Assembly (NCBI GenBank): GCA_016866975.1
Contig: VGKP01000015.1
Location: 1-17,078 of the forward strand
DNA length: 17,078 nt
Origin: Candidatus Pacearchaeota archaeon
Lineage (GTDB): Archaea; Nanobdellota; Nanobdellia; Pacearchaeales; GW2011-AR1
Direction: 5' to 3'
Program-made: the position numbers and the translations under genes
In this document: in pieces, positions 1-17,078 of the stretch
How positions within the stretch are numbered: position 1 is the stretch's first letter
Layout of the letters: the number at the start of each line of letters is the position of its first letter
Notes under the pieces: generated by a model
What the model was told of the DNA's origin: nothing
Database searches by the model: none
What the model saw: only the letters and a program-made list of their open reading frames with translations

Positions 1-96
1 GGCTTAAAAGCCGAGGTTTGTTGCAGGCGCTCGTTTTTGGAGATGCTCGGGAACCACCACACCTTGAAAGGTGTGGTTTTCATCGGTTCCCGACAT
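1..96. mobile_element. Double-hairpin non-coding element, copy 1 (left part cut off by window start); PATE/REP/MITE-like
   Basis: 1-48 is identical to 13302-13349. Then ATG-C-TCGGGAACC(47-55)...GGTTCCCGA(85-93)-CAT encloses the perfect hairpin ACCACACCT-TGAA-AGGTGTGGT (56-77). Mobility is inferred from copy 2. Confidence 0.65.
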
Positions 97-4655: not shown

Positions 4656-4924
4656 TCTAAGAATCCAGGGTTTCTTTTGGGTCAACTTCCTTTAATACCA
4701 ACATTCCTATAGAAACACTCCTCCTTTTTACCATTGAACTAATGAGAATAGAGATTTAATAAAGTTTAGTGTGTTCTCTTTGTTTGAGACATCGAGAACG
4801 TTGAAGAGTAACATTTCTGATATAAGAGAGAATAAGGAGTTTTCTAGTGTATTCAAGAACTAAGGATACACATTAGATATTAGTTTGAGTGTTATTGACA
4901 CATCTCCTCTATAAGTGAAAATCA

Positions 4925-5032
4925 AAAGCACGATGCGCCACCGCGCCTTAAACCTCGAAGATGTGAATCCTCTATGGCAGTCAGGAATCTTAGATTCCTG
5001 ATGAAGCGCAGTTTGCGTCAAGTTCCTTACAT
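4925..5032. mobile_element. Divergent/chimeric copy 3 of the hairpin element
   Basis: ACGATGCGCCACC (4930-4942) equals 13287-13299. GTCAAGTTCCTT-ACAT (5017-5032) matches 13384-13400 with a 1-nt gap. The interior differs and holds the perfect inverted repeat TCAGGAATCT-T-AGATTCCTGA (4981-5001). Confidence 0.5.
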
Positions 5033-5063
5033 GTGAATTATGTATCTTCCTAGTGCACAAAGA

Positions 5064-6492: not shown

Positions 6493-6512
6493 TTGTTTTA
6501 TGCATCCACAGG

Positions 6513-6520
6513 TTTAAATA
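6513..6520 (+). promoter_or_regulatory. TATA box of CxxC-x17-CxxC gene
   Basis: TTTAAATA ending 21 nt before ATG 6541. Confidence 0.5.
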
Positions 6521-6540
6521 GACACAATCGATTGAAAGGT

Positions 6541-6993
6541 ATGGGAAATTTTCATTCTAAGCCTGATAGGAGAAGTGGATTTAGGAAGGATCGTGGAAGT
6601 GGCGGTAGCTTTGGTGGCGAATCCAGAGGATTTGGAGGACGTCCAAGGTCACGTGGAGCTAGAAGATTTGGATCTGAAAACCGAGAAATGCATGAAGCCA
6701 CCTGCGATAAATGTGGAAAGCAATGTAGCATCCCTTTCAGGCCAAGTGGTGGCAAACCTGTCTATTGCAGTAATTGTTTCAGAAGTAATGGCGGAGACTC
6801 GAGAGGAAATGAATCAAGACAAAGCTTTGCTCCAAGATCTGAAAGGCCTGTTCAAGCAAATGGAATCTCTCAGGAACAATTCAAACAGTTGAATACGAAA
6901 CTGGACAAAATTTTGGCTTTACTTGAACAACTTGAAATTGAAGTTATTGAAGATGATGAAGATGAAGATGATAGTGAAGATGATGAAAAGTAA
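6541..6993 (+). CDS. CxxC-x17-CxxC zinc-ribbon protein with RG/RGG-rich N-terminus and acidic tail
   Basis: REMHEATCDKCGKQCSIPFRPSGGKPVYCSNCF is the family signature. ATG 6541 is preferred over the track start 6493. Confidence 0.85.
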   Translation: MGNFHSKPDRRSGFRKDRGSGGSFGGESRGFGGRPRSRGARRFGSENREMHEATCDKCGKQCSIPFRPSGGKPVYCSNCFRSNGGDSRGNESRQSFAPRSERPVQANGISQEQFKQLNTKLDKILALLEQLEIEVIEDDEDEDDSEDDEK

Positions 6994-12600: not shown

Positions 12601-13174
12601 GCAACTCAAGAAAGGAGTGTATGAGACGCTGATAAAGGATGATGCGATGAGCATTGAAGTCAACAAGAAAAAAGTTATCCTAAATATATTGAACATAAAT
12701 TCAACAGGGATGCTTGTGAGCAGTGGTGGAAAGGTACAGACTCTGCCATTCCCTGAATATGTTTTCATTGACCTTGACAAAGATGGGACTCCAGATGTTG
12801 TCGCACAAGTAAGATTCCTAGATGCTAATTCTCAAGATGGAATTCTTGCCCTCAGCAAGTACATCCCTCTGTCAGCTGAGCAAAGATCAGGATTTGAGCC
12901 AATTATACCAAATCAGCAACAAGAAAAAAGAGAAGTAACTAAGGAAGAGCCAAAGCAAGAGTCATTCTTAGAAAAACAAAACATTCAGCCACCAAAGCTG
13001 CAAGAAGAGAATACAAAAACAGATGATGGCCTACAGAAAAATATTATCATAGGATTCTTCATATTTGTCATACTTATATTGATAACAGTTATTGTCGTGA
13101 CAATCTGGAAAATAACTCACAAGCCTAGCAGGAATATTACTGGGCCTCAAATATATTATCCCGAGCTTAAATGA
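9692..13174 (+). CDS. Large surface protein: right-handed parallel beta-helix (pectate-lyase-like) + Ig-like domains + Pro/Thr/Gln linker + C-terminal TM anchor
   Basis: N-terminal hydrophobic signal, FYIDPKG..SDSNVGNITKPWCTL (DUF1565-like start), repeated N-rich turns (NNTIRNSTILYNG, IRNNLFRDNG, IENNMF, VRNNYF, ITNNIF, IDHNIF), QPPT linker, DLDKDGTPD motif and TM IIIGFFIFVILILITVIVVTIW. Confidence 0.9.
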   Translation: MKREVFLILIGAILFVSIGAWYMTGRTVYTQIQDNGMCIELNVGQIDFYIDPKGVCAPCSDSNVGNITKPWCTLRRALNFSEPVHFSGGKRLYLREGVHRFDGLEFFVPKYGLSGSPDKKTLISSYPGEKVYVHASERVQGWQKQTLPDGKNIWTFEWRKYLQEKRPKYLAKEHPLGISLRDSNGKITNFAQNYTDVPQALFIDAFYPLTSKPIIIPQANETKTMAKRDGTESFDYINITYPRPYYSTVTRLNVTVVAYPNPESMPPGTAYYENDPAHPNYGKLFIRPPEVFNSIDPDIVPIEIPVNYLGFLGINQSSNIHIANFSYRYSNGFPDSGFDGGLILNGDDILIDNMDLSYHVLGAMIGGGANNTIRNSTILYNGATGSWRVGNNITYDSNIFMWNGWRPFYQAWAVAGMKLIDAKGTYNFTIRNNLFRDNGIGLWIDYTGDGPEILHGKKTWQNYIGSGHLIENNMFISDCLALETSPGSETNPIIVRNNYFSGKYYNPNRVGIAIQSSPYINITNNIFVDIDQGIMALGPVTPLWEPEYVTRSRVHNIRIDHNIFMNVSFPIIFGHDSTNAANSQKKMIFANDTSDFNVFYGGKSPNVYFRAVKENVDFSKPFAPLQLSDKHPLYMGSRTVASHAYDADGNPSNGVFPEIFLSAEDYAWFKSRPIEELESKFYFSNGFIHSLNYKEPGAYKFLSFEEWKTANKNETNSLIGDPKLTSNTSYSVRAGQGSPAEQIGFKPIDFSKVELPPLKIDYPKNNGKYNITSLSLNISYSGMPLRYCSYIVNEGQSESFRCDENVSAKLFSDRNNSLIASFLDELGSTRIVQSNFSVDSVAPNYSISPQNGTVLISRGFTLQSDMTDRHPESISYILFNSTGTVVQGIVKESKLSQSLGPFPFGKYHYKIIAADTHGNINESPIFTLTLSEQPAQPPTQPPQTPPTQPPTKGEDKKPSRESTTFLITDEQLKKGVYETLIKDDAMSIEVNKKKVILNILNINSTGMLVSSGGKVQTLPFPEYVFIDLDKDGTPDVVAQVRFLDANSQDGILALSKYIPLSAEQRSGFEPIIPNQQQEKREVTKEEPKQESFLEKQNIQPPKLQEENTKTDDGLQKNIIIGFFIFVILILITVIVVTIWKITHKPSRNITGPQIYYPELK
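12496..12543 (+). repeat. Four imperfect 12-bp repeats encoding the (Q/T)PPT-type linker
   Basis: gcaacctccaac gcaacctccaca aacccctccaac tcaacctccaac. Confidence 0.75.
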
Positions 13175-13281
13175 CTGAAAATAAATTCAACGAAAAATAT
13201 TCTGAACCAGAAAGCGCACCCTGGACTTTCACCGACATAAATGGTGAGATTGCCAGACTTATGGATGAAAAATACTTATCA

Positions 13282-13401
13282 CAAAAACGATGCGCCACCT
13301 CGGCTTAAAAGCCGAGGTTTGTTGCAGGCGCTCGTTTTTGGAGATGCTCAAGGAACAACTCCAGCTTAAAAGCTGGAGTTTTAGTCAAGTTCCTTGACAT
13401 A
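13282..13401. mobile_element. Double-hairpin non-coding element, copy 2 (complete; ends uncertain by a few nt)
   Basis: Hairpin A: CAAAAACGA-T-GCGCC/GGCGC-TCGTTTTTG around ACCTCGGCT-TAAA-AGCCGAGGT. Hairpin B: ATG-C-TCAAGGAAC/GTTCCTTGA-CAT around AACTCCAGCT-TAAA-AGCTGGAGTT. It interrupts a gene. Confidence 0.78.
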
Positions 13402-13407
13402 AAAAAT

Positions 13408-13920
13408 ATGAGAGTTCTTGAAGTAGGATGCGGTGAGGGGCACCAAGCAATATACCTTGCAAATAAAGGCATGATTGTCCATGCTGTAGATTCTTCCCAA
13501 AAAGCAATCAAATATGCGATTGAAAATGCAAAGACTTCCCGAGCAGATGTTGAATTTGAGGTCAAGGGACATCATGAACTAGACAGAATGAAAGGGAAAT
13601 TTGACTTCATATTTGACTGGAGATTCCTGCAGGAGATAACTGATGAAGATATGAGAGAGAGATTTTTCATAAGCATAAACAGGCTTCTTGGACCAAAGGG
13701 AAAATATCTTTCCGTAGAATTTAGCGGAGATTCTGATTTCATGGGCAATGGCAAGCTGCGCACATCCTCTGTGGGAATCAAAATATACTTTGCGACATTG
13801 GAAGAAAGCAAGAGGATCTTTGGAAAGTATTTCAGGATAATCGAGGCAAGACATATAACATTGCCACAAAAGCCAAACATGAATATTTTAGCGAACTATA
13901 TGTTATGTGAAAGAATATGA
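13408..13920 (+). CDS. SAM-dependent methyltransferase, catalytic (C-terminal) portion
   Basis: Motif I VLEVGCGEG, VHAVDSS, FDFIFD and LLGPKGKYL. Confidence 0.85.
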   Translation: MRVLEVGCGEGHQAIYLANKGMIVHAVDSSQKAIKYAIENAKTSRADVEFEVKGHHELDRMKGKFDFIFDWRFLQEITDEDMRERFFISINRLLGPKGKYLSVEFSGDSDFMGNGKLRTSSVGIKIYFATLEESKRIFGKYFRIIEARHITLPQKPNMNILANYMLCERI

Positions 13921-16951: not shown

Positions 16952-17078
16952 CTCAACACTTTCCCTTCAACACCCAGCATCCGACTCAACACTTTCCCTT
17001 CAACACCCAGCATCCGACTCAACACTTTCCCTTCAACACCCAGCATCCGACTCAACACTTTCCCTTCAACACCCAGCA
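16952..17078. repeat. Perfect 33-bp tandem repeat, 3 full units + 28 nt, cut by window end
   Basis: Unit ctcaacactttcccttcaacacccagcatccga at 16952, 16985, 17018 and 17051 (partial), with no spacers. Confidence 0.98.

Follow-up and report, generated by a model that had tools for sequence, protein, structure and literature searches.

The double hairpins that recur in the window, the 17,078-nt stretch of DNA analysed here (contig C15 of the host assembly), are very probably copies of a non-autonomous mobile hairpin repeat of 120 to 123 nt that was recently amplified as the subfamilies A1-B1, A2-B2 and A3-B2; on this reading, B1 and B2 are diverged forms of one unit type, and the second copy in the window is an inter-subfamily recombinant. 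We consider it moderately probable that the explanation holds as a whole, namely, that a mobile repeat with recombining subfamilies is moved as single-stranded DNA by a route like that of IS200/IS605 elements. The host is a small-genome freshwater DPANN archaeon, present in lake-water metagenomes, whose genes include those for replication factor C, an RPA-type SSB, and HerA; its assembly spans 805,708 bp in 31 contigs and is 89% complete. The features of the window that bear on the repeat are as follows.

1..42, + strand: A1 part of copy 1, the 3' two thirds of an A1 unit, identical to 13302-13343.
43..96, + strand: B1 unit of copy 1, with an ATG...CAT frame, outer stem, inner stem, and 3' bulge TTTCATCG.
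4921..5035, + strand: degenerate third copy, with an A-like 5' arm, a 51-nt C-type module, and the 3' end of a B2-like unit.
13171..13308, + strand: N-terminal fragment of a SAM-dependent methyltransferase, from read-through translation and homologues.
13278..13343, + strand: complete A1 unit of copy 2, from sequence and fold.
13344..13400, + strand: B2 unit of copy 2 (B-unit covariance model, 81.8 bits).
13408..13920, + strand: remainder of the methyltransferase gene (Pfam Methyltransf_25, E 1.5e-15).

Copy 2 represents the full element (13278-13400), in which a unit A of 66 nt, including a GGAG linker, is followed by a unit B of 57 nt. Its A1 unit consists of an outer stem (CAAAAACGA.GCGCC/GGCGC.TCGTTTTTG), an inner stem (ACCTCGGC/GCCGAGGT) closed by the loop TTAA(AA), a 3' bulge (TTGTTGCA), and the linker; its B2 unit has the outer stem TCAAGGAAC/GTTCCTTGA, the inner stem AACTCCAGC(T)/(A)GCTGGAGTT, the loop TAAA, and the bulge TTAGTCAA. 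Copy 1 is truncated: the contig start falls within unit A, and a full A would begin approximately 24 nt upstream, as at 13278 (complete A1 copies elsewhere in the genome begin ATCACAAAAACGATGCGCCAC). What remains of its A unit is the inner hairpin (GGCTTAAAAGCC...), the bulge, and the 3' outer arm (GGCGCTCGTTTTTGG), and the B1 unit that follows reads ATG-C, outer stem TCGGGAAC/GTTCCCGA, inner stem (C)ACCACACC(T)/(A)GGTGTGGT with loop TGAA, 3' bulge, and CAT. Positions 1-48 and 13302-13349 are identical letter for letter, and divergence begins past ...GGAGATGCTC, which bears out the preliminary description of two copies that agree for 48 nt and then switch abruptly to a different second hairpin (B1 at 43-96, B2 at 13344-13400). 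The covariance model of the B unit scores 43..96 at 64.8 bits (E 4.9e-16). Folded with its whole A unit, copy 2 reaches −64.2 kcal/mol, compared with −32.2 ± 3.4 kcal/mol for shuffled sequences (z −9.3; equaled by 0 of 200 shuffles), and copy 1, cut by the contig start, reaches z −3.7. In the third copy the C-type double-hairpin module (51 nt) replaces the A loop, and the B2-like 3' end reads GTCAAGTTCCTTACAT.

The window holds two further repetitive tracts. A perfect 33-nt tandem repeat (CTCAACACTTTCCCTTCAACACCCAGCATCCGA) of at least 3.8 copies occupies 16952-17078 and runs off the contig end; it lies within an open frame from 16886 and may encode an 11-residue protein repeat or mark an assembly break. 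A GAA/GAT-rich tract with a 9-nt period (6940-6993) forms the 3' end of an open reading frame for a treble-clef zinc-finger protein (6493-6993) and gives it an acidic D/E tail.

Units A and B are built alike, each with an outer stem, an inner stem, an A/T loop of 4 to 6 nt, and a 3'-side bulge of 7 to 8 nt that starts with T's. The B-unit model matches A units at 25 to 35 bits (28.5 bits, E 2.9e-5, at 13292-13331 in copy 2), and A and B are therefore related (paralogous) units. B1 and B2 share 21 comparable pairs in a model-based alignment, all of them Watson-Crick in both; 14 are the same, 7 are changed on both sides, and none is changed on one side only, so the earlier statement that the stems stay perfectly paired through compensatory changes stands. 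Beyond the host, 25 of 100 other genomes searched within the order contain a match to the model; they represent 13 of the 16 species in the genus, additional genera in the family, and two families besides.

Thirty-seven distinct B units from many genomes extend this comparison. Standard pairs fill 95.7% of their 796 pair cells versus 78.4% after shuffling, a contrast in which the alignment, fitted to the covariance model, favours structure, but whose size far exceeds that bias; pairing falls to 28 to 44% when partners are slid. Two-sided changes occur in 16 of the 22 pairs and amount to 163 cells, versus 48 in shuffles (0 of 500 shuffles reach that number), while one-sided cells number about 17. 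The mispairs comprise 18 G.T, 14 A.C, and 20 others; because G.T and A.C are equally rare, neither strand is favoured as RNA. Across species, sequence is conserved in the ATG...CAT termini, in the loop, in the T's that follow the inner stem, and in the GTCAAG of the bulge. The preliminary description was right that random decay cannot give such a pattern. A likeness of the B2 inner stem to an origin recognition box (ORB) was considered and ruled out, as this stem varies freely between species.

Within the host genome, BLAST yields 74 merged regions, and anchors for 63 A units, 22 near-identical B1 cores, and 38 near-identical B2 cores merge into approximately 67 loci in 0.8 Mb. Copies are dispersed at about one per 12 kb, and among perfect hairpin stems genome-wide the inner stems of B2 (38), B1 (21), A1 (20), and A2 (20) rank as the four most frequent. 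In an independent metagenome, a contig carrying A1 has a depth of 326.6 versus approximately 14.5 for flanking single-copy DNA, which agrees with the number of copies assembled. Several more contig ends likewise lie within the repeat family; such repeats fragment assemblies, and gene callers may take them for gene starts or ends. The densest cluster of the genome lies on contig C3 (29700-53082), where 10 elements occupy 23 kb in a single orientation at spacings of 0.5 to 6.5 kb.

Hairpin A, which the preliminary description took to be constant, falls into three types. A1 and A2 differ in the 5' tail, in both arms of the inner stem (with compensation), in the bulge (TTGTTGCA versus TTGATGCA), and in the 3' tail; in A3 the outer stem is also changed with compensation, and the inner hairpin nearly matches B1's, with 18 of 22 bases shared by manual count. 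The 49 complete copies with both flanks comprise about 15 A1-B1 (120 nt), about 19 A2-B2 (122 nt, some with nested modules), 4 A3-B2, 9 recombinants, and 2 that are unclassifiable; copies with nested modules reach 171 to 223 nt. B2 stands behind A1, A2, and A3, and B1 stands behind A1 and behind A2 or A2/A1 chimeras. The swap of B units is thus real, but as a minority state: with types mostly linked and 9 of 49 copies recombinant, the image of B units as interchangeable modules holds only in part. Breakpoints fall in at least four shared segments (ATGCTC, GGCGCTCGTTTTT, the A loop, and the A 5' arm), a scatter that looks like homologous exchange between copies and not like a dedicated module junction. 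Copy 2 of the window (A1-B2) has its breakpoint in the shared ATGCTC and an identical twin at C3:50404; two pairs of recombinants are identical, and two chimeras with a mismatched inner stem are each present in two copies. Near-identity of copies within the genome, set against differences of 10 to 25% between species, is the pattern of recent bursts.

The element is itself a site of insertion. Double-hairpin modules of 50 to 51 nt (C and D) are set exactly at TTAAA|A within the A loop or, in inverted form, within the T run of A's 3' arm, and neither A site is duplicated. Intact A units with a C module in the TTAAA|A loop are found at C24:4558, C8:117, C13:7463, C3:37457, and C2:40547.

Copy 2 interrupts a SAM methyltransferase gene. 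The upstream piece (45 residues) extends into unit A as far as a TAA in the A loop, while the downstream gene (170 residues) starts exactly at motif I (MRVLEVGCGEG); the two share a frame that only this TAA interrupts. Metagenome homologues, compared at the protein level, carry the N-terminal part and motif I in one frame (52 to 57% identity over the best segment, for the best 14 of 19 loci), and the spacing from PWT[YF] to [RKN][VI]LE[VI]GCGEG is 18 to 20 residues in the closer homologues and 17 in L091, a more remote one (37% identity). Removal of 123 nt (ATCAC...GACAT, ±1) or 120 nt (TCAC...GAC) from copy 2 restores colinearity with these homologues, which resolves the borders of the element, at this one site, to within 120 or 123 nt. 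A search of the genus for an orthologous empty site returned a nearest methyltransferase of only 32% identity. In Logan contigs of four lake-water metagenomes, none joins across 13278-13400, 1-96, or 4921-5035; contigs end at the repeats, the joints listed have short sides (22 to 30 nt) and derive from other copies, and no empty-site polymorphism emerged. A second gene-internal site is found in a sister species (L076, G009:C123, ~700-900), in which an IS200-like tnpA is split between KYRY and KMF by a multi-unit element of B type.

No target duplication accompanies these insertions: no register of 2 to 5 nt is duplicated in more than 12 of the 49 complete copies, and none is duplicated at the element borders. 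A duplication of AT or TA, which fits L076, was rejected, since at copy 2 it would break the reading frame of the methyltransferase and it is absent over the 49 copies. The flanks do share a short consensus: on the 3' side, position +2 is A in 47 of the 49 copies and position +1 in 37, and on the 5' side, more weakly, A stands at −3 in 31 and at −2 in 33. If the terminal AT were part of the target, the target would read TTAT on the other strand at both gene-internal sites, the borders not being fixed.

Adjacent copies point in the same direction in 38 of 44 pairs, and orientation in the host genome follows GC skew, computed in ±10 kb around each element with the element excluded. The + form, as in the window, falls in stretches with C > G on the + strand 26 times out of 34, and the − form falls in stretches with G > C 30 times out of 32 (Fisher 2.8e-9); a calculation that averages the skew of genes on both strands, to take out the coding-strand part, leaves 23 of 33 and 28 of 31 (8e-7). 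By contig, agreement is 16 of 20 (P = 0.02). Because neighbouring copies are not independent, these P values make the association look stronger than it is. A second genome of the genus, G005, agrees in direction (11 of 16 and 6 of 7; P = 0.027) over 20 contig pieces chosen for holding matches, with two skews of exactly 0 counted as positive. The whole-genome set of 16 loci in G008 is not significant (8 of 8 and 3 of 8; P = 0.2), and 26 units in G032, from a different family, give no replication (+ form, 7 of 18; − form, 6 of 8; P = 0.67). The bias is clear where copies are recent and is not general. Equating the G-rich strand with the leading strand is an assumption for this lineage.

From the hairpin ends, the lack of duplication, the short conserved flank, and the replication-linked orientation, we infer single-strand movement of the IS200/IS605 type. 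The element would likely travel as folded single-stranded DNA at the replication fork, to be cut and rejoined beside a short A/T-rich target without target duplication, and an IS200-type Y1 transposase could act in trans. In its layout, each unit, with its outer stem, inner hairpin, and 3' linker, would correspond to the right-end topology of IS608 (guide, hairpin, linker, and cleavage site), with the bulge as a fixed linker or recognition segment and not a programmable guide. For the IS608 family, the relevant passages of one account describe insertion into the template of the lagging strand, beside a 4-nt target recognised by a guide at the foot of the hairpin (PMC5027513). That a Y1 transposase moves the repeat as single-stranded DNA is a serious candidate that falls a little short of probable.

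The distribution of Y1 genes bears on this candidate in both directions. The host genome (G000) encodes at least two kinds of IS200-type Y1 transposase (77.8 bits against NF033573, cut-off 55), and a Y1 protein scores 31.2 against the REP-associated model REP_Tyr_transpos (cut-off 80); the genes are multi-copy and located at contig ends. All six other Y1-bearing genomes of the genus carry the element, and several Y1-bearing genomes of the family are without it. Run over the ends of 14 Y1 loci at E ≤ 0.01, the B-unit model found nothing, its sole match there being the element inserted in tnpA. IS200-like right ends (GGAAAC, hairpin, GGAGGATGTCA[TC]) resemble B by eye, in short motifs only; derivation of A-B by deletion from an IS200-like element was considered and dropped, as the covariance model does not find the IS ends. 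A search of G000 and G008 with loose motifs for an autonomous copy of the form A, gene, B returned only noise. One IS200-like element of the host (tnpA, 155 aa, at C10:122-589; element at C10:1-650, the end of C2, and the start of C21) has two different assembled left flanks, and on C21 a complete, reversed A-type 5' arm comes after its left-end hairpin, an arrangement that suggests recombination between an IS end and the repeat family.

The same mobile hairpin repeat might instead have a mover other than a Y1 transposase, whether a tyrosine recombinase that works on folded single strands in the manner of integron integrases on attC, an unrecognised transposase, or host replication and repair. 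PF01797 has no match in 6 of the 12 other genus genomes that match the A-B DNA query, including G008 (12 contigs, 0.95 Mb) and G005 (51 B units), although assembly of metagenome-derived genomes often loses IS copies, so a missing Y1 gene is weak evidence. TnpB and IS110 are absent from five of five genomes tested, and four of these five encode Xer-like recombinases, often in two copies; such a recombinase is a common archaeal housekeeping gene, and its presence says little. The element lies approximately 50 to 200 nt from the end of an Xer-like gene at two of six loci (L128 in G050:C15 and L129 in G005:C16), a closeness that could be chance; the other four have no element inside 1.5 kb. The core motifs of attC sites, RYYYAAC and GTTRRRY, are absent from the units. 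Precedent for a missing mover exists in the small mobile repeats (SMRs) of Haloquadratum, for which the passages concerned likewise name no known mobiliser and report PATE insertions where all IS200-type genes are broken (PMC3119063). On this balance, a mover other than Y1 is possible, and we lean against it.

Other readings leave mobility aside and concern what keeps the hairpins paired or what the units are for. Loops occur as exact reverse complements (TTAAAA to TTTTAA in A and B2, TTGAAA to TTTCAA in B1) in 4 of 49 complete copies, with both loops inverted in 2 of these; these inversions show that strand switching also reshapes the hairpins, a process that could explain some of the perfect pairing with no need for selection on every pair. 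Pairing might then be kept mainly by template switching or gene conversion between hairpin arms and between copies. In keeping with such correction, one-sided changes are nearly absent, and in chimeric A units the inner stem is mismatched, with ACTGCGGC opposite GCCGAGGT (two copies). It leaves unexplained the order-wide conservation of the loop, the bulge start, and the termini, as well as the amplification of only those copies with intact architecture; we doubt that it is the main cause, and it is compatible with a mobile repeat. Selection on structure, as the preliminary description proposed, therefore keeps its support in an architecture retained through many compensatory changes (163 versus 48 cells) but is not the sole alternative to decay. 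The same description envisaged a dedicated mechanism that places B cassettes beside a constant A, with a variable bulge that picks the target. Some observations agree with it: B2 has three different A partners and B1 more than one, and the B1-like inner hairpin of A3 implies that hairpin parts move between frames. Against it stand the strong linkage of types (parental combinations in about 34 of 49), the lack of a single junction, and above all the bulge, which is invariant among the 22 (B1) or 38 (B2) copies of a type though their flanks differ, is among the better conserved parts across species (TTTyGTCAAG), and matches the DNA beside it no better than that beside other copies: the longest bulge-complementary run averages 3.40 nt in a copy's own flanks and 3.52 nt in the flanks of other copies (n = 45). 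Flank consensus is also equal for B1-ended and B2-ended copies. The comparison of flank complementarity largely refutes this model, which we regard as highly improbable. We give as little credence to a structured RNA or expression signal (a terminator, stabiliser, or small RNA) under selection at the RNA level. On the + form each inner hairpin is followed by a T run, and copies are mostly intergenic (42 of 63 A anchors, versus 14% non-coding DNA by crude ORF calls), as such a signal would have it. The whole window has no Rfam match at gathering score, however; copies also lie inside genes and break them, and the balance of G.T and A.C mispairs and the recent bursts both speak against selection on a transcript. 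Relative to the genes beside them, A copies lie both ways (co-directional, 8; opposite, 10; convergent, 8; divergent, 6), a lack of bias that led us to reject a terminator.

If the window indeed carries copies of a recently amplified mobile repeat, its abundance is unexpected for its host: streamlining is expected of small DPANN genomes, yet about 1% of this one would be a selfish repeat that lands even inside genes. The 37 distinct units form a natural compensatory series, which shows the parts that must pair and the letters that are fixed, and may serve as a mutational map for enzyme work.

Several known kinds of small repeat differ from the element in basic features. Classical MITEs (DDE) have terminal inverted repeats and target duplications, and the element as a whole has neither. 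Integron attC sites were rejected as a match: the stems TCAAGGAAC/GTTCCTTGA misfit the cores, copies are dispersed, and the only recombinases found are Xer-like, adjacent at two of six loci. BOX elements of Streptococcus pneumoniae are modular (boxA, boxB, and boxC) small structured repeats, and Rickettsia palindromic elements (RPEs) insert in coding sequence while the host frame stays open. Both belong to other lineages and have other sequences; unlike an RPE, the element here keeps the frame but stops it with the TAA in the A loop. In IS200/IS605 left ends, guide and target both lie 5' of the hairpin, an arrangement that unit A does not share. Among titles and abstract openings of the literature on repeats in Woesearchaeota and other DPANN, the A-B family was not found.

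The closest kinds are single-strand hairpin elements of the PATE and REP type, together with the SMRs of Haloquadratum. Like the REP, BIME, and REPIN sequences described in parts of PMC6006769, the units here are abundant, intergenic, imperfect palindromes with several subfamilies per genome and form mosaics with other motifs. The same source states that REPs are believed to travel as single-stranded hairpins, mobilised by a Y1 HuH enzyme, and that, among Archaea, only the IS200 subclass of Y1 proteins has been found (PMC6006769). Our units lack the REP head GT[AG]G, and A and B stand head to tail and not inverted; a REPtron would comprise a single-copy RAYT gene with the repeats on either side, no RAYT was found in the host genome, and its Y1 proteins score as IS200 and below the REP_Tyr_transpos cut-off. 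To our knowledge, no REP-type transposase is known from archaea.

PATEs (palindrome-associated transposable elements) are gene-less derivatives of IS200/IS605-type elements in haloarchaea; as characterized by Dyall-Smith et al. 2011 (PMC3119063), they have no terminal inverted repeats and no target duplication, and their near-terminal palindromes are invaded by other small repeats. Our element resembles them in being gene-less, archaeal, and present in tens of near-identical copies, and its palindromes hold small repeats, the C and D modules. It is likewise too short for a transposase (120 to 123 nt, or 171 to 223 nt with modules), has palindromes near both ends, and has element ends (ATCA(C/A)AAAAACG... 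and ...GTTCCTTGACAT) that are not mutual inverted copies; over 49 copies it makes no duplication, with a net gain of 123 or 120 nt at the methyltransferase site. Differences remain. The end units here are homologous nested hairpins with a 3' bulge, each with short inverted termini of its own (ATC...GAT and ATG...CAT); by the B-unit model at the 14 Y1 loci, the end palindromes are not related to resident IS200/IS605 elements or to those of related genomes; and the presence of the element does not track Y1 genes. The best analogue of the C and D modules is SMR-A of Haloquadratum, which the sections concerned describe as a repeat of ~110 bp with prominent inverted terminal repeats that makes no target duplication and inserts in palindromes of PATE and IS605 type (PMC3119063), whereas the modules here are 50 to 51 nt with two hairpins.

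Seen beside these systems, the element leads us to a more speculative proposal, offered tentatively and with the expectation that parts of it may fail: that this DPANN order has a REP/BIME-like system of its own, in which a nested-hairpin unit that copies the layout of IS200/IS605 ends forms dimers and mosaics, exchanges inner hairpins by strand switching, and is moved in trans with replication by an IS200-type transposase or another enzyme. If the link to IS200-type enzymes is true, archaea would have their own version of the bacterial REP/RAYT relationship, though one that lacks a domesticated transposase.
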